Positions 20,457 through 64,000 of a DNA stretch of 64,000 nucleotides are shown one piece after another. This stretch comes from Escherichia coli (GTDB taxonomy: Bacteria > Pseudomonadota > Gammaproteobacteria > Enterobacterales > Enterobacteriaceae): assembly GCF_013315695.1 (NCBI RefSeq), contig NZ_CP054353.1. One strand, given 5' to 3'. Position 1 is the stretch's first letter. The number at the start of each line of letters is the position of its first letter. The notes below the pieces were generated by a model, which saw only the letters and a list, made by a program, of their open reading frames with translations, did not search any database and had not been told where the DNA came from. Made by a program: the position numbers and the translations under genes.

Positions 20457-21374
20457 ATGCCACTCTCAAAGGTCTGGGCAGGTTCACTGGTTTTGTTGGC
20501 AGCCGTGAGCCTGCCGCTGCACGCGGCTTCCCCAGTTAAAGTCGGTTCAAAAATCGATACCGAAGGCGCGCTGCTCGGCAATATCATTTTGCAGGTGCTG
20601 GAAAGCCACGGCGTACCAACGGTCAATAAAGTGCAACTTGGAACGACTCCTGTGGTGCGCGGGGCGATTACTTCCGGTGAACTGGATATCTATCCGGAAT
20701 ATACCGGCAATGGCGCGTTTTTCTTTAAAGATGAAAACGATGCGGCATGGAAAAATGCCGGGCAGGGCTACGAGAAAGTCAAAAAGCTCGATGCAGAGCA
20801 AAACAAGTTAATCTGGCTGACGCCCGCACCTGCGAATAACACCTGGACCATCGCCGTGCGTCAGGATGTGGCAGAGAAAAATAAACTCACTTCGCTTGCT
20901 GACCTGAGTCGTTACCTGAAAGAGGGCGGCACCTTCAAACTGGCTGCCTCAGCAGAGTTTATCGAACGCGCCGATGCGTTACCCGCGTTTGAAAAAGCCT
21001 ATGGCTTTAAGCTCGGTCAGGATCAGTTGCTGTCACTGGCTGGTGGCGATACGGCAGTGACGATCAAAGCCGCTGCTCAGCAAACCTCTGGCGTTAATGC
21101 CGCAATGGCTTACGGTACCGACGGTCCGGTCGCGGCGCTGGGGCTGCAAACCTTAAGCGATCCGCAAGGCGTGCAACCTATCTACGCACCTGCACCAGTG
21201 GTGCGTGAATCGGTGTTGAAGGAGTATCCGCAAATGGCACAGTGGCTACAGCCAGTCTTCGCCAGCCTCGATGCAAAAACATTGCAGCAACTGAATGCCA
21301 GCATTGCTGTGGAAGGACTGGATGCCAAAAAAGTGGCTGCCGACTACCTGAAACAAAAAGGGTGGACGAAGTAA
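20457..21374 (+). CDS. osmF: glycine-betaine-type ABC transporter periplasmic substrate-binding protein
   Basis: 305-aa ORF with signal peptide MPLSKVWAGSLVLLAAVSLPLHA; first gene of yehZYXW. Confidence 0.85.
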   Translation: MPLSKVWAGSLVLLAAVSLPLHAASPVKVGSKIDTEGALLGNIILQVLESHGVPTVNKVQLGTTPVVRGAITSGELDIYPEYTGNGAFFFKDENDAAWKNAGQGYEKVKKLDAEQNKLIWLTPAPANNTWTIAVRQDVAEKNKLTSLADLSRYLKEGGTFKLAASAEFIERADALPAFEKAYGFKLGQDQLLSLAGGDTAVTIKAAAQQTSGVNAAMAYGTDGPVAALGLQTLSDPQGVQPIYAPAPVVRESVLKEYPQMAQWLQPVFASLDAKTLQQLNASIAVEGLDAKKVAADYLKQKGWTK

Positions 21375-24340: not shown

Positions 24341-25027
24341 TTAAATGCCGAGTGGGAAAATATCATGGCCTTGTTCCTGCCAACTGGTGAGTTGCTGCTG
24401 TTGGGCGGAGGTTCGATTTTCACCGCACCACACCAGCAATGTACGGCCTTCGAACAGTTCAGGGCGTAGTTGATTGAGCGAGTGGGCGAGGACATCAATG
24501 CGCCATCCTTGTTGACTGGCAATCCAGCCCTCCAGCCACAGACGGGTGGTATCCTGAATATTCCAGCCAACCACCAGCGCATCTTTACCCTGTTTTTTAC
24601 GTGCCGAAGCCAGACAAATGGCAATGTAGTTGATCAGTACGCCGTCGAGGATCGCCAGCAGCGCCTGGAGAGTCGGTTGTTGGCACTGAAGCCGTCGGCG
24701 CAGTGGAATGAACAGATGTGTGGTGAGTGTCTGGGCGGGGTAATCCTGACCGCGCTCTTTGATCCACGTTCGCAGGCTATGCAGATTGCCGCTTTGCAGG
24801 TAAGTCAGTAATGTTTCTTGCTGATCGCGCCAGCCGTTCTGCACATCAACATTTTCATTACTGAGCAGCATTTTTACTTTGCTGACCTGCACGCCATTGT
24901 CGATCCAGCGTTTGATCTCGCGGATCCGGTCAATATCGGCATCGTTGAACAGCCGATGACCGCCGTCTGTCCGTTGCGGTTTCAGCAATCCGTAACGCCT
25001 CTGCCACGCGCGTAACGTGACAGGGAT
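24341..25027 (-). pseudogene. mlrA: MerR-family curli regulator MlrA (YehV), 5' end replaced by prophage DNA
   Basis: Reading frame matches MlrA from ...PVTLRAWQRRYGLLKPQRTDGGHRLF onward; upstream codons diverge and hit an in-frame stop, with no ATG for the native N-terminus (MALYTIGEVALLCDIN missing); first in-frame ATG gives the 215-aa ORF 24341..24988. Confidence 0.7.
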
Positions 25028-25062
25028 TAAGGGTAAACTAACTGATTTTACAAGTTTTTATT

Positions 25063-26349
25063 TTACCCCACTTTCTTATGGGGCATACATGGGACACTTT
25101 CAGATAGTCTTTTGTTAAGGAGTTCTATCTGTTCGTGATTGTTGTCTTTCATCCATGCTCCGTAAACATTGAATACCATTTGTGCGTTTGTGTGGCCCAT
25201 CTGGCTTGCGATAAAACTAGGATTAGCTCCAGCGGCAAGTGACCAGCATGCATAAGTATGCCTGGATTGGTACGATTTTCTGTGTCTCAGACCTGCGTGT
25301 TTTAAGATACTTGTCCATGACTCCCTGATGGAGTCAACCTTATAGTGCGGTCCGGAAAACTGCCGCTGTTTTATTACCTGAGGACTAAAAACAAAAGTGC
25401 ATTTATGCACAGTACTTCTCCCATATTCCCTCTGCTTTACCTCTACAGAATGTTGCTTTCCAAGCATGGTCATTTCCGCCTGACTTTTAAGAGCATCAAT
25501 AGCTGGTTGAACCAGATGAATTGTCCTTCCGGTGCCAGCATCGGTTTTTGGTGGAGTGAATTCGCCAAGTTTTGTATAATTCCTACGGATGGTTATAGTC
25601 CTTGCTTTAAGATCTATATCTTCCCATGCCAGCGATACCAGCTCCCCGTGACGAATACCCGTGTATACAGCGAGAATCCACAGGTTTTTTGTTTGTTGAT
25701 GACGGCAAGCCTCAATAAAACGAATAAATTCGTCACGGGTGAGAGGATCTGGTTTTACCTTGGACTTTTTTAAGGGAGCCAGACCGTTAAATGGGTTTCC
25801 TGAGGTATAACCATTATCTGTTGCAAATTGAAACATTCCAGCTATGGTTGTCATATAGTAGTTTACCGTGACCACTGAGCGCCCTTTTATGGAAGAAGTC
25901 TTTCCATTAGAAAGTTTTTGGTAACCGGTCAACAAATCTCTCCTTACGAAAAGTAAATCCTCTTTTGTTATGGATGAAACCAGTTTTTTTTCACCTAACA
26001 TTGGTAACATGTTTTTAATTACTGACTGGTAACGGTTAAGTGCATTCGCACAAATCTCAATTTTCTTAAGGTCCAACCATTTTTCCGAAAGTGCCTTAAC
26101 GGTTATCTCTCTTTTTCCCAGACCAAAGTGTTTCAGGTTAGGGGAATTAGGGAACTGCGCGGAGTAGTCGAAACTCCCCATTCTGATTGCAAAACAAACG
26201 GAAGTGCGAAGTTCACCAGCGATCTTCCGGTTTTTGGCTGTGTCAGGAACACCGAGGTTTTCTCTGACACGTTTGCCATTATAGTGAAACCATATACGGA
26301 GTGATCCTCCATGGTTTTCAACGCCTGTCGGGTATGATGCGTTACTCAT
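25063..26349 (-). CDS. int: tyrosine-type site-specific integrase
   Basis: 428-aa ORF with R (GIRHGEL), HxxR (SRHTYA) and catalytic Y (VFNVYGAW) motifs; adjacent to the attL junction. Confidence 0.9.
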   Translation of the reverse strand: MSNASYPTGVENHGGSLRIWFHYNGKRVRENLGVPDTAKNRKIAGELRTSVCFAIRMGSFDYSAQFPNSPNLKHFGLGKREITVKALSEKWLDLKKIEICANALNRYQSVIKNMLPMLGEKKLVSSITKEDLLFVRRDLLTGYQKLSNGKTSSIKGRSVVTVNYYMTTIAGMFQFATDNGYTSGNPFNGLAPLKKSKVKPDPLTRDEFIRFIEACRHQQTKNLWILAVYTGIRHGELVSLAWEDIDLKARTITIRRNYTKLGEFTPPKTDAGTGRTIHLVQPAIDALKSQAEMTMLGKQHSVEVKQREYGRSTVHKCTFVFSPQVIKQRQFSGPHYKVDSIRESWTSILKHAGLRHRKSYQSRHTYACWSLAAGANPSFIASQMGHTNAQMVFNVYGAWMKDNNHEQIELLNKRLSESVPCMPHKKVG

Positions 26350-26382
26350 TAAACCTCCCAGACGTCCAGGAGCATTAACAGG

Positions 26383-26637
26383 TTAACCGGAACTTGCATT
26401 TTTGGCACCTGGTTGTTTCTGGTTTTCGATCCATCGCATAATTTCTTCGATGTTGTACAGGCATTCACTGTAGTGCCTCGGATCACCTTCTACAGCGTAA
26501 TGGCGGTATTCTTTTCCCTGCATCCATGACTTTCTTCTTGCCCGCTCAATGGTGCCAGGCTTTAGCCCTGTTGATGCAATGAGGACTCTCTCCGTACACC
26601 ATTTGCTGGGGGTTATCTGATAGATGATTGTCTGCAT
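26383..26637 (-). CDS. xis: excisionase-like protein
   Basis: 84-aa basic ORF immediately upstream of int; typical xis position. Confidence 0.6.
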   Translation of the reverse strand: MQTIIYQITPSKWCTERVLIASTGLKPGTIERARRKSWMQGKEYRHYAVEGDPRHYSECLYNIEEIMRWIENQKQPGAKNASSG

Positions 26638-26654
26638 GCCAACCTCATAAAATT

Positions 26655-26790
26655 TTCATCCACGGCAGTGGCACCACACGTCAAACATTCGCTTCACAAC
26701 TTCACGACAGTAGAAGCCGTCAACATCTCGCGTCAGGTCATAGCGATTGCCGTAACGCTGGTGGACCCATCGTTCAAATGCTTTATTCAT
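26655..26790 (-). CDS. small phage protein (44 aa)
   Basis: ORF MNKAFERWVHQRYGNRYDLTRDVDGFY...; below the ORF-track size cutoff. Confidence 0.4.
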
Positions 26791-26793
26791 TCT

Positions 26794-27072
26794 TTACTTC
26801 CTTTTTATGGCTCGTAATTTTTTCAGGTGCTTTTCCTGCTCAGTGTCCGCGAGAATTTTGCGGTACTCCTGGTGGTCAATATGTTCGAACAGGCAGTTTA
26901 ACTCACCAATGCGTACCCGCCCGGATCGTCCGTCCATCCGTCGAAAGAACACTGAGTGCTCAGTGATGCGAGTAATCACCACGGGGTATCCGGCTCTGTC
27001 CGTGTATATCTGACCGCGTTGAATCAAAGCGAACATGTGGTTATCCCCATCGACAAATCGAGAACACAACAA
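26794..27072 (-). CDS. hypothetical early-left protein
   Basis: 92-aa ORF; true start may be the internal Met (MFALIQRGQIYTD...). Confidence 0.4.
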   Translation of the reverse strand: MLCSRFVDGDNHMFALIQRGQIYTDRAGYPVVITRITEHSVFFRRMDGRSGRVRIGELNCLFEHIDHQEYRKILADTEQEKHLKKLRAIKRK

Positions 27073-27120
27073 ACGCTGCTGCGAATACCACCCCCAGAGT
27101 TACGATTGCATCAGGCCAGC

Positions 27121-27639
27121 TCATTGATTCACCTCCTGCCTGTCGTCCGGCATTCGCTCACTACAGCTTATCCAACCATCCGGAGTTACCGGAGAGCTGG
27201 TTGACGCTTCCGGGATTTTCCGAAAATTATTGGTTGACGAATCTTTATTTTCCCGAAAGTTTCCGGACTGAAGCATGGCTTCGCGGCAATCGTTCCAGCC
27301 TGTAGCGTATGCAGCCGCTTTGCTGCTGCCTTCAACTGGCGCATCCTGCCAATACATTTCTTCCGGCACTACCGGCGCTGGAGGGGCGGCGTAAATGCCC
27401 TCTATCACTAAATGTTTGCGCTCAAAATCATCTGGCTCTCGATGATATACGTAACTCCAATCACCAAGGTTATCATTGCGCCTGCAACGGAAACCTATCG
27501 GCTCTGCTTCCAGCGATGCCAGAGCAATTCGTGCCAGTTCTTCCGCTTCTTCTGCTGGCAGTACAACGTTGCTACCCGGTCCGTATGTTTCGCGCCACTG
27601 CTTGATTGTCAGCAGTCGCTCTTTGGTAATAGTGATCAT
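27121..27639 (-). CDS. hypothetical early-left protein
   Basis: 172-aa ORF, 4-bp overlap (translational coupling) with the upstream gene. Confidence 0.5.
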   Translation of the reverse strand: MITITKERLLTIKQWRETYGPGSNVVLPAEEAEELARIALASLEAEPIGFRCRRNDNLGDWSYVYHREPDDFERKHLVIEGIYAAPPAPVVPEEMYWQDAPVEGSSKAAAYATGWNDCREAMLQSGNFRENKDSSTNNFRKIPEASTSSPVTPDGWISCSERMPDDRQEVNQ

Positions 27640-28151
27640 GCCGCGTTTCCTTCTTTCTTATTAACAATTACACCGTCATATATTTCATTAAGGTGCCCTC
27701 TCAACTCCATGCGCCTTAATGCAGATAACATGTAATCGCATTCAACCTGCTTATTCCCGGTAAATGGCTTATCGTCAGGATTACCCCAACAGCAATTACC
27801 CCTGGGCCATCCATGTACTTTCCGTACTCTTCCGTTAACAACGTGAAGTAATCCCCAGCCGGGAGGTAAATCCTCAACTGAAATAATTTCCGGCTCACTA
27901 ATAAAGAATCGCCAGTCGCCCATGCCAAGTGAGGGATTTTTACGGAAACGCTTTTTTCTATCTGCCAACAAGTCAGCACGAGAACACTTCGCCTCTATCA
28001 GGCATGATGCTGAATTTCTGAATCCCATAGCATCTGGCTGTTCTCCGGTACTGGTTACAGCAACAAAGCGGTCATGAAAGCAAACCTTGAACCCGTTGCG
28101 CTTAAGGAACTTGTACGCAATCTGACAGAGTTCGTGGTGTGTTAACGCCAT
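27636..28151 (-). CDS. PD-(D/E)xK-type nuclease-like protein
   Basis: 171-aa ORF with an E-x-PD...IEAK arrangement (GEQPDAMGF ... CLIEAKCS) typical of restriction-endonuclease-fold nucleases. Confidence 0.5.
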   Translation of the reverse strand: MALTHHELCQIAYKFLKRNGFKVCFHDRFVAVTSTGEQPDAMGFRNSASCLIEAKCSRADLLADRKKRFRKNPSLGMGDWRFFISEPEIISVEDLPPGWGLLHVVNGRVRKVHGWPRGNCCWGNPDDKPFTGNKQVECDYMLSALRRMELRGHLNEIYDGVIVNKKEGNAA

Positions 28152-28152
28152 A

Positions 28153-28752
28153 TCACTCTCCTTTGATGCGAATGTCAGCGACGCGTAATGCGTGTTCTAG
28201 GTCAATCAGGTAAAGCCAACTGCCATTTTCTTTAGGTATCATGACTTGTCGCTCATCTGCATTTATGGGGTGTCCATATCGAAGGTCGTAGCGAGTCGGT
28301 AATTGAACTTCCCGCGCTTCCAGTTCAGCAATACGCTTGCACCCATCAGAGATAACTCCCTCATAATACTCGCGCTGCTCGTTGAGTTTTGATTTTGTCT
28401 CCTCAAGCTCAACGCGCAGCTTCCCTACCGTTAGCGCAATATCCTCGTTCTCCTGGTCGCGGCGTTTGATGTATTGCTGGTTTCTTTCCTGTTCATCCAG
28501 CAGTGCCAGCACGGTAGCCGGGTTAGCCTCTGCTATGAATTCAGCGTTTGCATAAGCCTGAGCATCTGTTTCAACCAGGCAGTTAACGTGACATTCTGCA
28601 ATTACGCCACCGGGTTCTCCTTTCCATTTTTGACAAACAAAAACTCCTGTTAAATTGCCGTGTTGGTTAACAGATGTATGCCCTACGATGTAGCTTCCTT
28701 TAGTTGCTTTCTCTGCCTTTTCACGCAGTACCTGATAGTTAATGTTGCTCAC
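28153..28752 (-). CDS. Ead/Ea22-like protein
   Basis: 199-aa ORF with NPATVLALLDE motif and coiled-coil region, as in lambdoid ea22-like genes. Confidence 0.55.
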   Translation of the reverse strand: MSNINYQVLREKAEKATKGSYIVGHTSVNQHGNLTGVFVCQKWKGEPGGVIAECHVNCLVETDAQAYANAEFIAEANPATVLALLDEQERNQQYIKRRDQENEDIALTVGKLRVELEETKSKLNEQREYYEGVISDGCKRIAELEAREVQLPTRYDLRYGHPINADERQVMIPKENGSWLYLIDLEHALRVADIRIKGE

Positions 28753-28988
28753 TGGTTGCCTCCTTTACGGATCTGCGCTGCGATGCACGAAAAAAAAGAC
28801 TTTCGCGTATGACTGTTAAGAGCTGGCGCGAACGCCGCGTTAAGAACGGCGGCATCACAGCCGTCATCGATATAGAGCGCAATTTTTTTCTCCAGGCGTG
28901 CTTTGGCTTCCTGCAACTGCATATCCCGGCACGCACGCGGGATATACTCAGCAATTTGAGCGATAGATTTTTCGTTCTGTTTAAACAT
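28749..28988 (-). CDS. hypothetical small protein
   Basis: 79-aa ORF in a run of overlapping early-left genes. Confidence 0.4.
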   Translation of the reverse strand: MFKQNEKSIAQIAEYIPRACRDMQLQEAKARLEKKIALYIDDGCDAAVLNAAFAPALNSHTRKSFFSCIAAQIRKGGNQ

Positions 28989-29184
28989 GCTTCACCTCGA
29001 TAGGCTTGATGGTATCGATCAGCAGTCGGCGGCGAGTATTTTCTGCAAAGTGGCGGCGTCCGGTTTCTTTGTGGTAAAACTCGTTTTTTCCGACGACCCA
29101 CATCCGCTTTGTCTGGTGCAGTTTTTTTACCTGCGGACCGTCTCGGGTGATAACAATTCCTGTATGAGTTTTTATCACGCTCAT
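28981..29184 (-). CDS. hypothetical small basic protein
   Basis: 67-aa ORF overlapping its neighbours. Confidence 0.4.
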   Translation of the reverse strand: MSVIKTHTGIVITRDGPQVKKLHQTKRMWVVGKNEFYHKETGRRHFAENTRRRLLIDTIKPIEVKHV

Positions 29185-29543
29185 TTTTTATTCTTCGGTG
29201 CTTTCGGCATTACTGCCCAGTGAGTGATATTGACGTTTTCAAGGTCCCCGACCTGAAATGTCCACAGCCATTCTCCGGTTTCTTTTTGTCCCCAGGTGTA
29301 CCAGAGAGAACGCCAGCCAATTAGCCAGCCTTCTCCGTTAGCATCAAATAACAGAACACTTTCATTTGCTGGTGGCAGTTCAGCTGACACTGGTATTATT
29401 TTGTTTTCCAGTGCCGCACATTTAGCTTCAAGCGCGTCGAATTTACGTAACAGGTACTCAGCATTTGTTTCATTCACTTTCAGATCTCGCGGTACACATT
29501 TCCCGCGAAGAAACCCTTCCATTTCGAAAACATTCATGCGCAT
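29181..29543 (-). CDS. DUF551-like phage protein
   Basis: 120-aa ORF with GEGWLIGWRSLWYTWGQ tryptophan-rich motif. Confidence 0.45.
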   Translation of the reverse strand: MRMNVFEMEGFLRGKCVPRDLKVNETNAEYLLRKFDALEAKCAALENKIIPVSAELPPANESVLLFDANGEGWLIGWRSLWYTWGQKETGEWLWTFQVGDLENVNITHWAVMPKAPKNKK

Positions 29544-30139
29544 TTGCGTAACTCCGATAAATCGTTAAAACGTTCCATAAACATCCCGTAGGCATGACCC
29601 GGTGCCAGTGGAATCACGTTGAACATCTCTGTTGCCGGGATGCCTTCCAGTACTGGCCAGAAAGAGCCATCATCAAGCCCGAGATCGCGGCGTTCGGTTG
29701 CCAGCATGATGAGATCGGCATATTTCACAGGCGTGCGCATAACCGGGGGTAACCCGTATTTCTCACGGATTACGGCGTCTATTTTTTCTTCCATCCGTTT
29801 ATAGTCAGGAAGAAGGCGTTTCAGTGGAGCGGGAATATCCTGGCAATACGCTTCTGTTGCATCATGCATTAACGCTTCAAAAGCAAATTCCTGCGGCACC
29901 AGCTGGCTGCAAAGCACCGCATGCTGGGCGACACTGTAGAAGTGTGAAAGATGTCCTGCAAAGCGACAGATATTTGAAAGGGAAACCGCGATATCGTTAA
30001 TCACGATGTCGTCTTTATTTATCTTGTCATAATAAAAATGCTTCCCGGAAAAAGTTTTAATAAATGACATTTCGTTCTCCACTTTATATGCGCTGCACCG
30101 CTCTGAATTTTGATTGCAGCAATCCAGCCCATTTGACAT
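29534..30139 (-). CDS. HD-domain metal-dependent phosphohydrolase (5'-nucleotidase-like)
   Basis: 201-aa ORF with H...HD motif (SVAQHAVLCS ... ALMHDATEAY). Confidence 0.55.
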   Translation of the reverse strand: MSNGLDCCNQNSERCSAYKVENEMSFIKTFSGKHFYYDKINKDDIVINDIAVSLSNICRFAGHLSHFYSVAQHAVLCSQLVPQEFAFEALMHDATEAYCQDIPAPLKRLLPDYKRMEEKIDAVIREKYGLPPVMRTPVKYADLIMLATERRDLGLDDGSFWPVLEGIPATEMFNVIPLAPGHAYGMFMERFNDLSELRKCA

Positions 30140-30160
30140 GGGATGATTGCTGCAATTTTT

Positions 30161-31078
30161 TTAAGTTGTTGGATTTTGGCTTTTATCTTCTTTGTAAGAA
30201 AGAAGGTCACACATCAAATTAACTACCTTGCTGAATTGGAAAAGGTCAGCGCCAGTCTGATGACGCCACTGGAATGCTTTATCATCTTCATCATTAAATG
30301 TCTGAGATTGAGTATTGATGCGCGAAAAATGGAAATTTTCGGTAAGAATGAAGGTCACACCGCAACCGGATAACTCCATTTTATCAGCAGTGAAACTACT
30401 ACTAAGGCTATCGGCCAGTTCGCTTTGAATTGACTCATGCTCAGCTGAGTAGCGAATAATTTCCTTTTGATCTGCGTAGCGTGATAGCTGAATATAATTT
30501 CCGACAGTGAATCCTTCAAATGCATTGGCTGCACCATTGATGTAGTTATTCAGGCGTGTAGTCAGTCCATTCTTGATATCACTGATGTTGATTGTTTCTG
30601 TTTTCACTGAACCGACAACCTTAATCAGCATTGCGCATACCATACCGGCTATTATTTTATTGGTTGTGTTGATTACCAATAATTTCTCATCAGTGCTGTA
30701 CAATGCAAGAATCAGAGTAGACTTAACAAATGCCTGTTTGCATAGATCTACTCGTACGTTATCAATAATGGCCAGTCGTTCGGCACGCTTTAATTTATTC
30801 CCGGACATATTTTCGGTTGTTTGGATTCGAGAATTAGCTTCTTTCATGACGACATGTCGGGGAATTATTTTCTGATCATGACGGATTACCATTGCGTACC
30901 CACCAGATATCGGAGTTACCAGTTCACCAGTGACAGGATTCTCTACAAAAGAGGACCGTGAAAATTCTGTTTCCCCGATTTCAGAATAAGGGAGTTCGAG
31001 AAGATGACCTTCAATAGCCTGTATACTAGGTAATGTTGCTCGGTACACAATTGCGTTACGAAATTTTGGTAATTTCAT
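30161..31078 (-). CDS. RdgC-like recombination-associated protein
   Basis: Long ORF 30161..31279; likely start MKLPKFRNAIVYRATLP at 31078 with a GAGGAAAA RBS; RdgC-like N-terminus; AT-rich. Confidence 0.5.
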   Translation of the reverse strand: MKLPKFRNAIVYRATLPSIQAIEGHLLELPYSEIGETEFSRSSFVENPVTGELVTPISGGYAMVIRHDQKIIPRHVVMKEANSRIQTTENMSGNKLKRAERLAIIDNVRVDLCKQAFVKSTLILALYSTDEKLLVINTTNKIIAGMVCAMLIKVVGSVKTETINISDIKNGLTTRLNNYINGAANAFEGFTVGNYIQLSRYADQKEIIRYSAEHESIQSELADSLSSSFTADKMELSGCGVTFILTENFHFSRINTQSQTFNDEDDKAFQWRHQTGADLFQFSKVVNLMCDLLSYKEDKSQNPTT

Positions 31079-31692
31079 TCTATTTTCCTCTGCACAATGT
31101 ATTAGTTTCTCCACAAAACAGAGAAGAACACCTGCGGTGGCAGCCGCCCGGATGGATTGGGTTATGAGCCCGTCGTCCGGTGATGCTCTTCTCTGTTTTG
31201 TAAAAAGAGCGGTACCAGCCGGAAGCAAGTGTACAAACTGGTACCGCCAAAGCAGTGGCTGTTGTGGTGGGGTTGTCACTCAGGCGTATGGTCAACCTGA
31301 CAACCCGGTGTCCTCAACGGGGAAAGAGTAACCCCGCCATACTTACCGCCGCGCCATTTCGCGGATTACCACAACGCTGAGAGCACTTAGCCAGTTACGG
31401 CACCACACTTTGTCGCGGTTCCATAAATGCCCTCATCGTTGCACCCTGGTCTCTTCCCAGGCGTCAAACCGAATCGCCACGCTGGTTAGGCGTCTTATCA
31501 GCATCCTCATTGACTTGCACATTCCGGCTATCTGGTTTGTTTGCCCGAGCAAGGAGTGGATTGTCCCCTTTAACGTCCCCAGACCGCTAACGACGCATGT
31601 GCCATACGCCGTGTTACAACCAAATTTTGTTAGTACCTTGTTTGTAGGTCTGGAGAGAAAGATAAAATGAAGTTGCGCATTATGCAAGTGTT

Positions 31693-42691: not shown

Positions 42692-42767
42692 GGCCCTTTA
42701 GCTCAGTGGTGAGAGCGAGCGATTCATAATCGCCAGGTCGCTGGTTCAAATCCAGCAAGGGCCACCA
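42692..42767 (+). tRNA. tRNA with CAU anticodon (Ile2/Met-type; ileZ-like)
   Basis: Cloverleaf GGCCCTT-TA-GCTCAGTGGTGAGAGC..anticodon loop TTCATAA..GGTTCAAATCC..AAGGGCC-A-CCA. Confidence 0.85.
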
Positions 42768-42774
42768 TCACATA

Positions 42775-42851
42775 CCGCCATTAGCTCATCAGGATAGAGC
42801 GCCAGCCTTCGAAGCTGGTTGCGCGGGGTTCGAGTCCTCGATGGCGGTCCA
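42775..42851 (+). tRNA. tRNA-Arg (anticodon UCG; argN-like)
   Basis: Acceptor CCGCCAT/ATGGCGG, anticodon loop CTTCGAA, T-loop GGTTCGAGTCC, encoded CCA. Confidence 0.8.
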
Positions 42852-42864
42852 TTATCTGTACCCT

Positions 42865-42941
42865 GCGTTATTAGCTCAGCCGGACAGAGCAATTGCCTTC
42901 TAAGCAATCGGTCACTGGTTCGAATCCAGTACAACGCGCCA
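42865..42941 (+). tRNA. tRNA-Arg (anticodon UCU; argO/argU-like)
   Basis: GCGTTATTAGCTCAGCCGGACAGAGC..anticodon loop CTTCTAA..GGTTCGAATCC..CGCCA, close to host argU. Confidence 0.8.
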
Positions 42942-50308: not shown

Positions 50309-50818
50309 GTGGCTACGCAGACTGAAGTTGCCAGGCATTTAAGTCTGACCGATCGCCAGCTTCGCAGATTGCAGAAATTGCCGGGTGCCCCGATATCGAA
50401 TAAGCGAGGGCAACTGGATCTGGATGCCTGGCGCGATTTTTACATATCGTATCTGAGAAGAAGTAAAAACGATGTGCCTGATGGCGATAGCGAAGACGAC
50501 TATGAGGAGAAATTGCTTATTGCCAGATGGGAACTGACAGCAGAACAGGCTGTTACACAGCAGTTAAAAAATGAGGTGTCAAAAGGAAAACTTATTGACA
50601 CCGGGTTCTGTATTTTTGCCCTCAGCAAGCTGGCAATGGCGTTATCCAGTACGCTTGATTCCATCCCTTTATCCATGCAGCGACAGTTTCCTGATTTAAC
50701 ACCGCGCCATCTTGACCATCTGAAAACCCTTATTGCGAAGGGGGCAAATCAGTGTGCGCGGGCGGGGGATAAATTACCGGATTTACTCGATGAATATATC
50801 AGAGCAACAACTGAATAA
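50309..50818 (+). CDS. terminase small subunit (Nu1-like)
   Basis: 169-aa ORF (GTG start); C-terminal similarity to lambda Nu1. Confidence 0.8.
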   Translation: MATQTEVARHLSLTDRQLRRLQKLPGAPISNKRGQLDLDAWRDFYISYLRRSKNDVPDGDSEDDYEEKLLIARWELTAEQAVTQQLKNEVSKGKLIDTGFCIFALSKLAMALSSTLDSIPLSMQRQFPDLTPRHLDHLKTLIAKGANQCARAGDKLPDLLDEYIRATTE

Positions 50819-52707
50819 TATGATGAGTGCTGTCACAACAGCATTACAGCCCCTGATAAGGGCATTGCCGGTGACGCCAGTTGAATGGGCTGATCAAAAT
50901 TATTATCTGCCTAAAGAATCTTCATATGGTGAGGGAGAATGGAAAACGCTGCCGTTCCAGATCGCCATCATGAACAGCATGGGGAATGATCAGATCCGGA
51001 CTGTTAATCTGATTAAATCTGCCCGTGTTGGCTATACAAAGATGTTGCTGGGGGTGGTCGGGTATTTTATTGAGCATAAATCCCGAAACAGTCTGCTTTT
51101 TCAGCCCACGGATTCTGCCGCTGAAGATTTTATGAAGTCTCACGTGGAGGCGACGATTCGGGATGTGCCATGTCTGAAAGACCTTTCTCCATGGCTGGGG
51201 CGTAAACATCGTGACAATACTCTCACGCTGAAACGCTTTTCATCGGGTGTGGGCTTCTGGTGCCTGGGCGGCGCTGCCGCCAAAAACTACCGTGAAAAAT
51301 CCGTGGACGTGGTCTGCTATGACGAACTTTCCTCGTTCGAACCGGATGTCGAAAAAGAGGGTTCGCCAACCCTGCTTGGGGATAAACGTATTGAGGGCTC
51401 TGTATGGCCCAAATCCATTCGCGGCTCGACGCCTAAAATCAAAGGCACCTGCCAGATCGAAAAAGCGGCCAACGAGTCGGCGCATTTCATGCGTTTTTAT
51501 GTGCCCTGCCCGCACTGTGGGGAGGCGCAGTATCTGAAATTTGGCGATGAGTCCACGCCTTTTGGCCTTAAATGGGAGAAGGACAGCCCCGAAAGCGTTT
51601 TCTACCTCTGTGAACATCATGGCTGCGTGATCCATCAGTCTGAGCTTGACCAGAGCAACGGGCGGTGGATCTGTGAAAACACGGGGATGTGGACCCGCGA
51701 CGGTCTGACGTTTTTCAGCGCTGCGGATAATGAAATTCCGCCGCCGCGCTCCATCACATTCCATATCTGGACGGCGTACAGTCCGTTCACCACCTGGGTA
51801 CAGATTGTCTATGACTGGCTGGATGCACTGAAAGATCCCAACGGCCTGAAAACCTTTGTGAACACCACGCTGGGCGAGACCTGGGAAGAGGCCGTGGGCG
51901 AAAAACTCGATCACCAGGTGCTGATGGATAAGGTTGTGCGTTACACGGCTGCGGTGCCTTCCCGGGTGGTTTATCTGACGGCGGGCATTGACTCGCAGCG
52001 AAACCGTTTTGAGATGTATGTCTGGGGATGGGCTCCGGGAGAGGAAGCCTTTCTGGTGGATAAAATCATCATTATGGGGCGTCCCGATGAGGAAGAGACG
52101 CTGTTACGTGTGGATGTGGCGATCAACAAAAAATACCGCCATGCAGACGGAACCGAAATGACCATTTCCCGTGTCTGCTGGGACACCGGGGGGAATTGTC
52201 TATCAGAGGTCAAAAAAACACGGTGTTTTCCGGGTGCTGCCGGTAAAAGGTGCATCTGTTTATGGCAAGCCGGTGATCACCATGCCAAAAACCCGCAATC
52301 AGCGGGGCGTGTATCTGTGCGAAGTGGGGACGGACACCGCAAAAGAAATTCTCTATGCCCGTATGAAAGCCGATCCCACGCCTGCGGATGAAGCCACGTC
52401 GTATGCCATCCGTTTTCCTGATGATCCGGAGATTTTTTCGCAGACAGAGGCGCAGCAACTGGTGGCGGAAGAGCTTGTGGAGAAGTGGGAAAAAGGAAAG
52501 ATGCGTCTGCTGTGGGATAACAAAAAGCGGCGTAACGAAGCGCTGGACTGCCTGGTGTATGCCTACGCGGCATTACGTGTGTCCGTGCAACGCTGGCAGC
52601 TTGATCTGGCTGTACTGGCAAAATCCCGGGAAGAAGAGACGACCCGGCCAACCCTTAAAGAACTGGCAGCGAAGCTGTCCGGAGGAGTGAATGGTTACAG
52701 TCGCTGA
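50790..52707 (+). pseudogene. terminase large subunit (lambda A-like) with a frameshift at 52188-52193
   Basis: N-terminal frame (MNISEQQLNN...RVCWDTGG) and C-terminal frame (GIVYQRSKKHGVFRVLPVKGASVYGKPV...) both match lambda gpA as recalled, but are offset by one base at a run of six G. Confidence 0.8.
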
Positions 52708-58823: not shown

Positions 58824-59215
58824 AACACACTGACATTCGTGCCGCAGTGCTGGATGCACTCGAGCAGCATGAACACGGGGCGACGCTGTTTGATGGTCGC
58901 CCCGTTGTTTTTGACGAAGAGGATTTTCCTGCGATCGCGGTTTATCTGACGGATGCAGAGTATACCGGTGAAGAGCTGGATGCAGATACCTGGCGGGCCA
59001 CGCTGCATATTGAGGTGTTTTTACCGGCACAGGTACCGGATTCAGAGCTTGATCAGTGGATGGAAAGCCGGATTTACCCGGCGATGACTGCGATCCCGGC
59101 ACTGGCAGGACTGATTACCACGATGGTTACGCAGGGCTATGAGTATCGTCGTGATGACGATATGGCGTTATGGAGCTCTGCGGATCTGACTTATTCCATT
59201 ACATACGAGATGTGA
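58820..59215 (+). CDS. tail terminator protein U
   Basis: 131-aa [36 protein letters not shown]..., lambda gpU-like. Confidence 0.85.
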
Positions 59216-59222
59216 GGACGAT

Positions 59223-59969
59223 ATGGCAACACCAAATCCCCTGGAGCCGGTAAAAGGTGCCGGTACCACTCTGTGGGTTTACAACGGCAAGGCTGATGCT
59301 TATGCAAACCCGTTGTCAGACGATGACTGGCAGCGACTGGCTAAGGTGAAGGATCTGACGCCGGGCGAGATGACGGCTGAATCCTACGATGATAACTACC
59401 TGGATGATGAAGACGCGGACTGGAGCGCGACCGGGCAGGGGCAGAAATCTGCAGGTGATACCAGTTTTACGCTGGCCTGGAAACCGGGAGAGGAAGGTCA
59501 GAAAGGGCTTATAGGCTGGTTTGAAAGCGGCGATGTCCGGGCCTATAAAATCCGTTTTCCGAATGGCACGGTGGATGTGTTTCGTGGCTGGGTCAGCAGT
59601 ATCGGTAAGGCCGTGACGGCGAAAGAAGTGATCACCCGCACGGTGAAAGTCACTAACGTGGGTAAACCTTCTGTAGCGGAAGAACGCAGCAAAATTACGC
59701 CGGTCACTGCGATTAAGGTAACGCCGACAGGTACGGTTGAAAAAGGGAAAACAACCACCCTGACCGTTACTGTGGAACCGGAAAATGCAACGGATAAGAC
59801 ATTCAGGGCGATTTCCGCCGATCCATCAAAAGCCACCATTAGCGTGAAAGATATGACGATTACTGTGACGGGGGTTAAGGATGGAAAAGTCAGCATCCCT
59901 GTGATTTCCGGTAATGGTCAGTTTGCTGCGGTGGCTGAAATTACCGTTAATAATGTGCCGGGTGGCTAA
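59223..59969 (+). CDS. major tail tube protein V (C-terminal Ig-like domain)
   Basis: 248-aa ORF ...[11 protein letters not shown]...[40 protein letters not shown], lambda gpV-like. Confidence 0.9.
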
Positions 59970-59987
59970 AGAGCTGAGAGATAAGCG

Positions 59988-60419
59988 ATGTTCCTGAAAA
60001 CAGAACAATTTGAATATAACGGTGTATCCGTCACGCTTTCTGAGCTGTCTGCGCTGCAGCGTATTGAGCATCTTGCCCTCCTGAAACGGCGGGCAGAAGA
60101 GGCTGAAGCCAGCGGCAACCTGCAGGTGAGTGTGGAAGATCTTGTCAGAACCGGCGCGTTTCTGGTGGCGATGTCCCTGTGGCATAACCATCCACAGAAA
60201 ACGCAGTCACCGTCAATGAATGAGGCCGTGATGAAGATAGAGCAGGAAGTGCTCACCACCTGGCCTGCCGATGCCATTGCCCGGGCGGAAGACGTGGTGT
60301 TGTGCCTGTCCGGGATGATCGAAGCTGTTCGTCCGGATACTGATATTACTGAAGTGGCGAAAAATAACACGCTGACTGATGATGATTTTTCTGCGGGAAA
60401 GTCTTCGACGGCGAGCTGA
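59988..60419 (+). CDS. tail assembly chaperone G
   Basis: 143-aa ORF followed by an overlapping -1 frame ORF (T). Confidence 0.8.
   Translation: MFLKTEQFEYNGVSVTLSELSALQRIEHLALLKRRAEEAEASGNLQVSVEDLVRTGAFLVAMSLWHNHPQKTQSPSMNEAVMKIEQEVLTTWPADAIARAEDVVLCLSGMIEAVRPDTDITEVAKNNTLTDDDFSAGKSSTAS
60395..60401 (+). promoter_or_regulatory. programmed -1 ribosomal frameshift slippery site (G to G-T fusion)
   Basis: Heptamer GGGAAAG at the 3' end of G, as in lambda G/GT; -1 frame continues as ORF 60446..60859. Confidence 0.75.
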
Positions 60420-60445
60420 ACTTTGCCCTCAGACTGGCGCGTGAG

Positions 60446-60859
60446 ATGGGGAGACCCGACTGGCGCGCCATGCTTGCCGGGATGACATCCACCGAATATG
60501 CCGACTGGCACCGTTTTTACCGCACGCATTATTTTCAGGATACCCAGCTGGATATGCATTTTTCCGGGCTGACGTACGCTGTACTCAGCCTGTTTTTTTG
60601 CGATCCGGATATGCATCCCTCTGATTTCAGTCTGCTTGTCCCCCGGCATGAGGAAGAGCAGGTGGAGAGGCCGGATGAGGACAAAATGCTGATGCAGAAA
60701 GCGGCAGGACTTGCCGGAGGCGTCCGGTTCGGTGGGGACGGAGGGCGCGATATTTTATCGTCTGCGGATGTGGCGGATGTCATGGTGGATGATGCCGCAT
60801 TAATGATGGCTTCAGCGGGGATTCCGGGAGGTGTGAGATATGTCCCAGCCGGTTGGTGA
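60446..60859 (+). CDS. T-frame portion of the G-T tail assembly protein
   Basis: 137-aa ORF in the -1 frame relative to G, ends overlapping the H start. Confidence 0.7.
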   Translation: MGRPDWRAMLAGMTSTEYADWHRFYRTHYFQDTQLDMHFSGLTYAVLSLFFCDPDMHPSDFSLLVPRHEEEQVERPDEDKMLMQKAAGLAGGVRFGGDGGRDILSSADVADVMVDDAALMMASAGIPGGVRYVPAGW

Positions 60860-63401
60860 TCTTGTTATTGACCTTAGTCTGGATGCTGTCCGTTTCGATG
60901 AGCAGATGAGCCGGGTAAGGCGTCATTTTTCAGGTCTGGATACCGACGCCAGAAAAACCGCCAGTGCTGTTGAACAGGGCCTGAGCCGCCAGGCGCTGGC
61001 TGCACAAAAAGCAGGGATTTCCGTCGGGCAGTATAAAGCGGCCATGCGAACCCTGCCCGCACAGTTTACGGATATCGCCACGCAGCTTGCCGGTGGTCAG
61101 AATCCCTGGCTGATCCTGCTGCAACAGGGCGGTCAGGTGAAGGACTCCTTCGGCGGGATGATCCCCATGTTCAGGGGGCTTGCCGGTGCGATCACCCTGC
61201 CGATGGTCGGGGTCACCTCGCTGGCGGTGGCGACAGGTGCGCTGGTGTACGCCTGGTACCAGGGAGATTCCACGCTTTCAGCGTTTAATAAAACCCTGGT
61301 TCTTTCCGGTAATCAGTCCGGACTGACTGCCGATCGCATGCTGACGCTCTCCAGAGCCGGACAGGCCGCAGGGCTGACGTTTAACCAGGCGAGTGAGTCA
61401 CTGGCAGCCATGGTGAATGCCGGTGTGCGTGGTGGTGAACAGTTTGATGCCATCAACCAGAGTGTCGCGCGTTTTGCGTCTGCATCCGGTGTGGAGGTGG
61501 ACAAGGTTGCAGAGGCTTTCGGAAAACTGACCACTGACCCGACGTCGGGGCTGATTGCGATGGCGAAGCAGTTCCATAACGTGACGGCGGAGCAGATTGC
61601 GTATGTTGCTCAGTTGCAGCGTTCCGGCGATGAAACCGGGGCATTGCAGGCGGCGAACGAGGCCGCAACGAAAGGGTTTGATGACCAGACCCGCCGCCTG
61701 AAAGAGAACATGGGCACGCTGGAGACCTGGGCAGACAGGACAGCGCGGGCATTCAAATCCATGTGGGATGCGGTGCTGGATATTGGTCGTCCTGATACCG
61801 CGCAGGAGATGCTGATTAAGGCAGAGGCTGCGTTTAAGAAAGCAGACGACATCTGGAATCTGCGCAAGGATGATTATTTTGTTAACGATGAAGCGCGGGC
61901 GCGTTACTGGGATGATCGTGAAAAGGCCCGTCTTGCGCTTGAAGCCGCCCGAAAGAAGGCTGAGCAGCAGACTCAACAGGACAAAAATGCGCAGCAGCAG
62001 AGCGATACCGAAGCGTCACGGCTGAAATATACCGAAGAGGCGCAGAAGGCTTACGAACGGCTGCAGACGCCGCTGGAGAAATATACCGCCCGTCAGGAAG
62101 AACTGAACAAGGCACTGAAAGACGGGAAAATCCTGCAGGCGGATTACAACACGCTGATGGCGGCGGCGAAAAAGGATTATGAAGCGACGCTGAAAAAGCC
62201 GAAACAGTCCGGCGTGAAGGTGTCTGCGGGCGATCGTCAGGAAGACAGTGCTCATGCTGCCCTGCTGACGCTTCAGGCAGAACTCCGGACGCTGGAGAAG
62301 CATGCCGGAGCAAATGAGAAAATCAGCCAGCAGCGCCGGGATTTGTGGAAGGCGGAGAGTCAGTTCGCGGTACTGGAGGAGGCGGCGCAACGTCGCCAGC
62401 TGTCTGCACAGGAGAAATCCCTGCTGGCGCATAAAGATGAGACGCTGGAGTACAAACGCCAGCTGGCTGCACTTGGCGACAAGGTTACGTATCAGGAGCG
62501 CCTGAACGCGCTGGCGCAGCAGGCGGATAAATTCGCACAGCAGCAACGGGCAAAACGGGCCGCCATTGATGCGAAAAGCCGGGGGCTGACTGACCGGCAG
62601 GCAGAACGGGAAGCCACGGAACAGCGCCTGAAGGAACAGTATGGCGATAATCCGCTGGCGCTGAATAACGTCATGTCAGAGCAGAAAAAGACCTGGGCGG
62701 CTGAAGACCTGCTTCGCGGGAACTGGATGGCAGGCCTCAGGTCCGGCTGGAGTGAGTGGGAAGAGAGTGCCACGGACAGTATGTCGCAGGTAAAAAGTGC
62801 TGCCACGCAGACCTTTGACGGTATTGCACAGAATATGGCAGCGATGCTGACCGGCAGCGAACAGAACTGGCGTGGTTTCACCCGTTCTGTGCTGTCCATG
62901 CTGACAGAGATTTTTCTGAAGCAGGCGATGGTGGGGATAGTCGGGAGTATCGGCAGCGCCATTGGCGGTGCTTTCGGTGGTGGTGCGTCTGCCTCCACGG
63001 GGACGGCCATTCAGGCTGCGGCGGCGAACTTCCATTTCGCGACCGGGGGATTTACGGGGACGGGGGGTAAATATGAACCTGCGGGGATTGTTCATCGCGG
63101 GGAGTTTGTCTTCACGAAGGAGGCGACCAGCCGGATTGGTGTCGGCAATCTGTACCGCCTGATGCGGGGCTATGCGGAAGGTGGTTATGTCGGCGGTGCC
63201 GGAAGTCCGGCGCAGATGCGGCGGGCGGAAGGCATTAATTTTAATCAGAACAATCACGTGGTGATTCAGAACGACGGCCCCAACGGGCGGGCAGGGCCGC
63301 AGCTGATGAAAGCGGTGTATGAGATGGCCCGCAAGGGGGCACAGGATGAACTCCGGCTGCAGTTGCGTGATGGCGGTATGTTATCAGGGAGCGGTGGATG
63401 A
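60840..63401 (+). CDS. tail tape-measure protein H
   Basis: 853-aa ORF, same length as lambda gpH, with coiled-coil-rich centre. Confidence 0.9.
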   Translation: MSQPVGDLVIDLSLDAVRFDEQMSRVRRHFSGLDTDARKTASAVEQGLSRQALAAQKAGISVGQYKAAMRTLPAQFTDIATQLAGGQNPWLILLQQGGQVKDSFGGMIPMFRGLAGAITLPMVGVTSLAVATGALVYAWYQGDSTLSAFNKTLVLSGNQSGLTADRMLTLSRAGQAAGLTFNQASESLAAMVNAGVRGGEQFDAINQSVARFASASGVEVDKVAEAFGKLTTDPTSGLIAMAKQFHNVTAEQIAYVAQLQRSGDETGALQAANEAATKGFDDQTRRLKENMGTLETWADRTARAFKSMWDAVLDIGRPDTAQEMLIKAEAAFKKADDIWNLRKDDYFVNDEARARYWDDREKARLALEAARKKAEQQTQQDKNAQQQSDTEASRLKYTEEAQKAYERLQTPLEKYTARQEELNKALKDGKILQADYNTLMAAAKKDYEATLKKPKQSGVKVSAGDRQEDSAHAALLTLQAELRTLEKHAGANEKISQQRRDLWKAESQFAVLEEAAQRRQLSAQEKSLLAHKDETLEYKRQLAALGDKVTYQERLNALAQQADKFAQQQRAKRAAIDAKSRGLTDRQAEREATEQRLKEQYGDNPLALNNVMSEQKKTWAAEDLLRGNWMAGLRSGWSEWEESATDSMSQVKSAATQTFDGIAQNMAAMLTGSEQNWRGFTRSVLSMLTEIFLKQAMVGIVGSIGSAIGGAFGGGASASTGTAIQAAAANFHFATGGFTGTGGKYEPAGIVHRGEFVFTKEATSRIGVGNLYRLMRGYAEGGYVGGAGSPAQMRRAEGINFNQNNHVVIQNDGPNGRAGPQLMKAVYEMARKGAQDELRLQLRDGGMLSGSGG

Positions 63402-63727
63402 AAACCTTTCGCTGGAAAGTGAAGCCGGATATGGAGGTGAACTCGCAGCCATCGGTGCGTGAAGTGCGTTTTGGTGACGGGTACTCACAGCGTATGGCGG
63501 CAGGGCTGAATGCTGACCTGAAAACATACAGGGTGACGCTTTCCGTGACCCGGGAGGAGGCCCGGCATCTGGAAGCGTTCCTGGCAGAGCACGGTGGCTG
63601 GAAGGCATTTTTGTGGAAGCCACCCTATGCATACCGGCAGATAAAGGTGACCTGTGCCGGGTGGTCTGCGCGGGTCGGGATGTTGCGCGTTGAGTTCAGC
63701 GCGGAGTTTAAGCAGGTGGTGAACTGA
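63398..63727 (+). CDS. minor tail protein M
   Basis: 109-aa ORF MKTFRWKVKP...VRFGDGYSQR...VTCAGWSARVGMLRVEFSAEFKQVVN, lambda gpM-like. Confidence 0.9.
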   Translation: MKTFRWKVKPDMEVNSQPSVREVRFGDGYSQRMAAGLNADLKTYRVTLSVTREEARHLEAFLAEHGGWKAFLWKPPYAYRQIKVTCAGWSARVGMLRVEFSAEFKQVVN

Positions 63728-64000
63728 TGCAGGATATTCGCGAAGAAAGTCTGAACGAGTCGGTTAAGTCAGAGCAGTCACCGCGGGTGGTACTCTGGGA
63801 AATCGACCTGACGGTACAGGGTGGTGAGCGGTATTTTTTCTGTAATGAGCTGAATGAAAAAGGGGAGCCGGTCACCTGGCAGGGGCGTAAGTATGAGGCA
63901 TACCCGATTGACGGCAGCGGCTTTGAGATGAACGGCCGGGGCAGCAGTGCCAGACCGTCGCTGACGGTGTCCAATCTGTTCGGTCTGGTCACCGGGATGG
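63727..64000 (+). CDS. minor tail protein L (N-terminal part; continues beyond window)
   Basis: ORF from ATG at 63727: MQDIREESLNESVKSEQSPRVVLWEIDLTVQGGERYFFCNE..., lambda gpL-like. Confidence 0.85.
   Translation, partial: MQDIREESLNESVKSEQSPRVVLWEIDLTVQGGERYFFCNELNEKGEPVTWQGRKYEAYPIDGSGFEMNGRGSSARPSLTVSNLFGLVTGM

Follow-up and report, generated by a model that had tools for sequence, protein, structure and literature searches.

The GGGAAAG heptamer at positions 60395-60401 (+ strand) of a 64,000-nucleotide stretch of Escherichia coli DNA, here called the window, is very probably the recoding site of the G/GT tail assembly chaperone genes of a lambda-like E. coli prophage, judging from sequence comparison. 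It is a textbook lambda-type G/GT -1 frameshift in a common E. coli prophage and is already known. Nothing reported here alters existing knowledge of G/GT frameshifting, and the wider interest of the site is limited to whether a candidate stem-loop immediately downstream tunes the slip rate. The features under discussion are collected in Table 1.

Slip site and overlapping reading frames

Inspection of the open reading frame at 59988-60419 revealed that the heptamer is phased in it as GC[G] GGA AAG, that is, as X_XXY_YYZ, the phasing required for tandem -1 slippage. The product of this frame is 143 amino acids long, its C-terminal end reads ...DDFSAGKSSTAS*, and its stop codon is the TGA at 60417-60419. 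A previous sequence-only reading had given the coordinates of the heptamer correctly and had placed it 19 nt before the G stop. The actual gap is 15 nt, or five codons (TCT TCG ACG GCG AGC), and 18 nt are counted from the last heptamer base to the last base of the stop. The -1 frame is closed by a TGA at 60383-60385 and is open from 60386 to a TGA at 60857-60859 (154 codons counted from the heptamer), as had been claimed when the T frame was described as open through 60859. A complete T-frame product can be reached only by a frame change in the 31-nt stretch 60386-60416. The heptamer, with its X_XXY_YYZ form and G-frame phase, lies inside this stretch, within the G/T overlap.

Table 1. Positions of the G/T region and its neighbours in the window
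Feature	Position	Strand	Basis
V homologue (major tail tube protein), upstream neighbour	59223..59969	+	PF16461 Phage_TTP_12, E 1.1e-68, plus Big_2; 77% identity to lambda V, residues 1-243
Gene G, tail assembly chaperone, zero-frame product, 143 aa	59988..60419	+	PF06894; TIGR01674; 67% identity to lambda gpG
G/T overlap, sole stretch where a -1 shift would yield the full T domain	60386..60419	+	Flanking stops TGA 60383-60385 (-1 frame) and TGA 60417-60419 (G)
Slippery heptamer G_GGA_AAG (Gly-Lys), putative site of -1 tandem slippage	60395..60401	+	Sequence; phasing; identity to lambda; 80/80 close IMG/VR relatives
T segment, -1 frame, base 60401 read twice	60401..60859	+	Identity to lambda gpT; PF06223; TIGR01715
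Putative GT fusion, 290 aa	join(59988..60401, 60401..60859)	+	G and T segment joined at the slip site
Predicted 3' stem-loop, candidate frameshift stimulator	60409..60479	+	Fold energy and z-scores
H homologue (tape measure protein, 853 aa), downstream neighbour	60840..63401	+	PF06791 TMP_2; PF09718 Tape_meas_lam_C; 91% identity to lambda H

Profile searches and alignments were carried out on the products of both frames. The zero-frame product matched Phage_TAC_2 (PF06894) with an E value of 3.5e-51 and 172.7 bits (cut-off, 27) and the NCBIfam equivalog phage_lambda_G (TIGR01674) with 166.3 bits (cut-off, 74.45), and it is 67% identical to lambda gpG. The upstream ORF, having passed both profile cut-offs, is a chaperone of the gpG family. 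The sequence-only reading had proposed that the -1 translation be aligned to lambda gpT as a check on its claim; when this was done, the two proved similar (73% identity; E value, 1e-75). The -1 product also matched Phage_tail_T (PF06223) with 51.6 bits (cut-off, 25.9) and the equivalog phage_lam_T (TIGR01715) with 212 bits (cut-off, 77.35). In tblastn, G was matched in frame 3 and T in frame 2, which places T in the -1 frame relative to G. The two overlapping ORFs lie between the tube and tape measure genes, and the gene order is V-G-T-H, as in lambda. The start of H overlaps the end of T by 20 nt in the window, compared with 8 nt in lambda.

The alignment of T proteins also showed that lambda-type C-termini, including that of the window (60690-60856), end in a second copy of the motif A-G-[LI]-x-G-G-V-R-[FY]. 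Lambda-type T domains are about 37 residues longer than those of the phi80, HK225 and Gifsy-2 types, which end after the first copy of the motif; the C-terminal repeat of approximately 37 residues is missing from T of the phi80/N15/HK225 and Gifsy-2 types.

GGGAAAG is not enriched in the window, where it occurs 6 times compared with 8.3 +/- 2.9 times in shuffled sequences. Of the 169 open frames that span 100 codons or more, 3 have both an in-phase slippery heptamer within their last 30 codons and 100 or more codons of -1 extension. By a reading of the ORF list, the other two were rejected as shadow frames, one lying over the gene at 20457-21374 and one antisense to G/T. We calculated that roughly 0.2% of cases would be expected to show X_XXA_AAG in frame at any of some 10 codon positions. 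It is the frame, position and homology that make the slip site nonrandom; the motif count carries no weight.

Conservation of the site and the status of T

Comparison with lambda revealed that the slip site is the same in sequence (G_GGA_AAG), in phase and in its distance of five codons to the UGA stop of G. The 15 nt on each side of it are nearly identical in the two, and the block TTTCTGCGGGAAAGT is invariant. This block is preceded by a poorly conserved stretch of G, where indels of 6 and 3 nt keep the frame. The window proteins are longer than those of lambda, G by 3 residues and T by about 10, with the indels falling within T in its acidic linker and otherwise shortly before the slip site. 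Closer matches are provided by Escherichia phages PhiR12_1/2/4/5, which share 98.6% nucleotide identity with the window over G-T, and by the prophage of E. coli N1, which is 100% identical over 59000-64000. When the same interval, 59000-64000, served as the query, matches to at least 80% of it came from 3,681 of the 5,426 complete E. coli genomes.

GGGAAAG stands five codons before the G stop in all 80 close relatives from IMG/VR. Four of these 80 contigs (L004, L005, L006 and L070) keep the heptamer and have the G or T frame broken by indels or an internal deletion elsewhere; they are decayed prophage copies or draft-assembly errors. Two further IMG/VR scans, the second with phi80 GT as the query, found the slip site at the homologous codon in 75/80 and 76/80 loci, the rest being truncated or ambiguous. 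When the fused GT protein was used in a tblastn search of a phage collection, each of the matches listed came in two pieces, consistent with a frame change. In a panel of 13 members extending from lambda to Gifsy-2 (34 to 54% GT identity to the Gifsy-2 reference), Lys is invariant at the slip codon. The position of the slip site is therefore conserved in the 80 close loci, in the panel and in about 150 further loci.

The form of the heptamer differs among these relatives. The lambda group has G_GGA_AAG, Stx1 and Stx2_499 (L085/L086, 799-805) have A_AAA_AAG, and G_GAA_AAG is the form in phi80, HK225, mEp213, an Enterobacter phage, HannyBb, phi458, Gifsy-2 and most others. A subgroup has G_GCA_AAA_UAG, in which the Lys codon AAA abuts the G stop; this form suggests single-tRNA P-site slippage at the stop. 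Phages of the phi80/N15/HK225 and Gifsy-2 types are like the window in having homologous G and T genes, the same slip codon position and the invariant Lys. They differ from it in that the G stop is 1 or 5 codons past the site and in that the heptamer is G_GAA_AAG, so that P-site Glu would re-pair imperfectly on GGA. One subgroup of the phi80/Gifsy-2 type has A_AAA followed directly by UAG. In the phi80 record, the site bears the label 'slippery sequence for -1 translational frameshift', alongside a joined G-T CDS.

Formally, a frameshift mutation would leave the same picture of neighbouring ORFs, one in frame 0 and one in frame -1, that overlap briefly, and G-T might on that ground be taken for one ancestral gene that was split by a 1-nt frameshift and is now a pseudogene, with no recoding involved. 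However, the two-frame layout and the lysine slip site are found at the same codon from lambda to Gifsy-2 (34 to 40% protein identity) and in nearly all of about 240 IMG/VR loci. The layout is common to lambda, phi80 and HK225, which are functional phages, and the copies that are truly decayed differ in having their indels elsewhere. A split pseudogene is thus so improbable that we give it virtually no weight.

A second question concerns whether T is expressed on its own. The first ATG of the T frame is at 60446. The match to TIGR01715 begins at the seventh residue after the slip site (base 60413), inside the G frame and 11 codons before this ATG; family homology and lambda gpT identity begin 11 to 15 codons upstream of it, within the G ORF. 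The phi80, HK225, HannyBb and Gifsy-2 lineages have Phe in place of the Met encoded by this ATG and are left with no start codon there. In the 15-nt overlap, both differences between the window and lambda are synonymous in the T frame and nonsynonymous in the G frame. Between the heptamer and the first ATG, the ratio of synonymous to nonsynonymous substitutions relative to lambda is 4:2 for the T frame, as opposed to 0:6 and 2:4 for the remaining two; these numbers are small but agree in direction. No promoter-like or terminator-like sites were found on the + strand between 59200 and 61200. T is thus without an independent start, and coding in the T frame starts at the slip site. That homology to T starts upstream of the first ATG, inside the G frame, argues that T can be produced only as a G-T fusion.

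The opposite interpretation, in which T is an independent gene translated from the ATG at 60446 and the heptamer is incidental, is the one that RefSeq/PGAP follows for the identical sequence in E. coli N1. There, 'phage tail assembly protein T' (WP_000533402.1) is a separate 137-aa CDS from that ATG, with no slippage join, and the ORF list for the window likewise includes 60446-60859. We consider an independent T very unlikely, given that homology to TIGR01715 and identity to lambda gpT extend upstream of this ATG into the G ORF, that Phe replaces its Met in four lineages, that the substitutions between heptamer and ATG fit coding in the -1 frame, and that no promoter-like site was found in the interval searched. 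In addition, T sequences in lambda are made solely as gpGT (PMC5009743, PMC3296357). As homology, Met loss and substitutions all fail to support an independent T, the separate call in N1 is best read as an annotation shortfall. If T is made only as the fusion, as we prefer, the pair is better annotated as gpG plus a 290-aa gpGT joined by ribosomal slippage, join(59988..60401, 60401..60859), than as the separate 137-aa T that RefSeq carries for the identical sequence. G and T are annotated as separate genes in the PhiR12 phages, in N1 and in the prophages of many other strains.

Proposed slippage mechanism and candidate stem-loop

A programmed -1 frameshift at lambda G/G-T has reportedly been described by Levin, Hendrix & Casjens (1993) and by Xu, Hendrix & Duda (2004, 2013 and 2014). 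Passages in PMC3296357 and PMC5009743 that cite Levin et al. 1993 present frameshifting at the lambda GGGAAAG as experimentally established. About 96% of ribosomes stay in the zero frame at this sequence and gpGT is made in about 4% of cases (PMC3296357, with the sequence in its Table 1). The tRNA-Lys(UUU) reads both AAG and AAA, and its thiolation alters the frameshift rate (PMC3296357). Tail assembly needs gpG and gpGT at about 30:1; the binding partner of the G portions is the tape measure and that of the T domain is the tube protein, and neither gpG nor gpGT is present in the virion (PMC5009743). The G/GT arrangement is widespread in long-tailed phages (PMC5009743), and production of the fusion at a few percent of gpG, together with its requirement for tail assembly, is known for lambda only (PMC3296357, PMC5009743).

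The analysis of the window shows the sequence itself, its frames, their homology, the order of the genes and a slip position that is conserved; that slippage takes place there, how often it does so, what the stem-loop contributes and what the proteins do are inferred. Most ribosomes translating G (59988-60419) would terminate at the UGA at 60417-60419 and release the 143-aa gpG. A small fraction would move back one base on G_GGA_AAG, with the P-site tRNA-Gly re-pairing from GGA to GGG and the A-site tRNA-Lys(mnm5s2UUU) from AAG to AAA, and would continue in the -1 frame to 60859 to yield the 290-aa G-T fusion. If lambda is a guide, the tape measure protein H would be coated by the G parts of the two products, recruitment of the tube protein V would fall to the T domain, and a gpG:gpGT ratio of roughly 30:1 would be set by the low rate of slipping. 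A stem-loop 7 nt downstream probably lifts slippage from the level of the bare heptamer to a few percent. Transcriptional slippage was rejected on general knowledge, the A run being just 3 nt long.

The 79 nt that follow the heptamer have a minimum free energy of -38.2 kcal/mol (z = -4.0 compared with dinucleotide shuffles). The predicted fold consists of an outer stem (60409-60416 paired with 60472-60479) and an inner hairpin (60435-60470), with the first pair 7 nt past the heptamer. This segment ranks third in stability among 1,932 segments of 79 nt from the late region. When the T peptide is recoded synonymously, 99.5% of the variants fold less stably than the window sequence (z = -2.8), and none of 110 control segments from the same late genes reaches so extreme a value (mean z, -0.2; standard deviation, 1.0; minimum, -2.6). 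Folding predictions give this architecture for lambda as well (z = -4.1), and also for HK225 (z = -3.4) and phi80 (z = -3.6). Gifsy-2 has a stable predicted fold (z = -2.7) of different structure, and the architecture is not predicted in HannyBb or in relatives of the A_AAA_UAG type.

Evidence for the pairing itself was sought in aligned sequences. One stem pair goes from G-C to G-U to A-U, and a few others change by wobble. Most stem pairs never vary; they are fixed by coding for the conserved LAREMGRPDWRAMLAG peptide, which confounds the pairing evidence. A consensus obtained from 14 sequences weakened on a set of 41, where the outer helix was paired in only 69% of cells, and no family-wide consensus fold was found in the 41 distinct sequences (-1.6 kcal/mol). 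Since the loci gathered with phi80 GT hardly diversified the stem arms, covariation remains underpowered. A search against Rfam returned no family near threshold. The original lambda study is said to have found no required downstream structure.

Frameshifting in the -1 direction at G_GGA_AAG amounts to 0.28% without stimulators, 3.8% with the moderate stimulators of IS911 and 43% with the IS3 pseudoknot (Sharma et al. 2014, PMC4066793, Tables S3/S4), and the same study assigned a computationally predicted downstream structure to its prophage gpG cluster. The window site is similar to those of E. coli dnaX and IS911/IS3 (PMC4066793) in having an A-site A_AAG read by a single tRNA-Lys(UUU) and a heptamer with a 3' structure at 5 to 9 nt, which in the window is a predicted one. 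It differs from them in that they have an upstream SD-like element and 15 to 80% frameshifting, whereas no upstream SD-like element is visible in the window and lambda frameshifts at about 4%. The stem-loop, which was previously predicted, is a reasonable candidate stimulator. A more specific proposal, which we regard as possible but somewhat doubtful, is that the signal of the lambda/phi80/HK225 clade consists of the heptamer plus a conserved two-level stem-loop (60409-60479) that would raise slippage from roughly 0.3% to roughly 4% and help to set the gpG:gpGT ratio, and that this element is apparently absent from Gifsy-2/HannyBb-type and A_AAA_UAG-type relatives.

Tail module and broken terminase

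The sequence-only reading had contrasted the tail module with a disrupted terminase, and the disruption is borne out. The gpA homologue (terminase large subunit) is split into frames at 50733-52391 and 52171-52707, each with half of the nuclease domain, and lambda A aligns to the window in two frames. Relative to E. coli N1, which has an intact terminase and reads ATCGATGGCGA at this point, the window lacks 11 bp at 52193/52194, and this loss causes a frameshift inside the nuclease domain (gene at 50778-52707). The deletion junction occurs in 0 of 5,426 complete E. coli genomes, so the deletion is either strain specific or an assembly error. A broken terminase distinguishes the prophage from lambda.

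Relative to lambda, all other head and tail genes in the window have their full length; they are W, B, C, D, E, FI, FII, Z, U, V, G, T, H and M. This check covered the window, the end of which cuts L; K, I, J and the fibre genes are outside. The slip signal had also been taken to argue for an intact tail module. Z, U, V, G, T, H and M are indeed full length, but the slip site on its own shows just that G/GT is intact. Outside the tail region, the prophage is about 99.4% identical to that of N1, with 9 gaps. As the tail region is 100% identical to that of a prophage with an intact terminase, its integrity mirrors recent ancestry and not selection in this host. The word 'conserved', as applied to the signal, likewise speaks for recent shared ancestry and not for selection in this strain.

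Because the terminase of the prophage is broken, the slip site may never act in the making of infectious particles. We see about an even chance that the signal is intact in sequence and biologically idle, in a prophage made defective by the terminase frameshift, the site being merely undecayed. The truncation of the gpA nuclease domain by a deletion whose junction is absent from the 5,426 complete genomes fits this picture, as do the identity of the tail region to that of a terminase-intact prophage, which would have left no time for decay, and the existence of decayed G-T copies elsewhere (L004, L005, L006 and L070). Against it, the remaining head and tail genes of the window are full length, and the deletion may be a sequencing or assembly error. 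After induction, the late genes would still be expressed to yield gpG and gpGT, and probably tails, and the genes could be rescued by recombination with other lambdoid phages. Idleness would restrict only the consequence of slippage and leaves the mechanism proposed above uncontradicted. The combination of undamaged tail genes in the window with a broken packaging enzyme bears on particle formation or on the donation of tail genes by recombination.

Two further observations were made elsewhere in the window. The early (left) part of the prophage, examined at 25000-31100 against L003, is rearranged or mosaic relative to the E. coli N1 prophage. A prophage tRNA cluster at 42692-42941, upstream of a SASA-family esterase gene, comprises a tRNA with anticodon CAT (annotated as Ile in N1), tRNA-Arg(TCG) and tRNA-Arg(TCT). 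Such an arrangement of tRNA cluster and esterase is typical of Stx-like lambdoid prophages.
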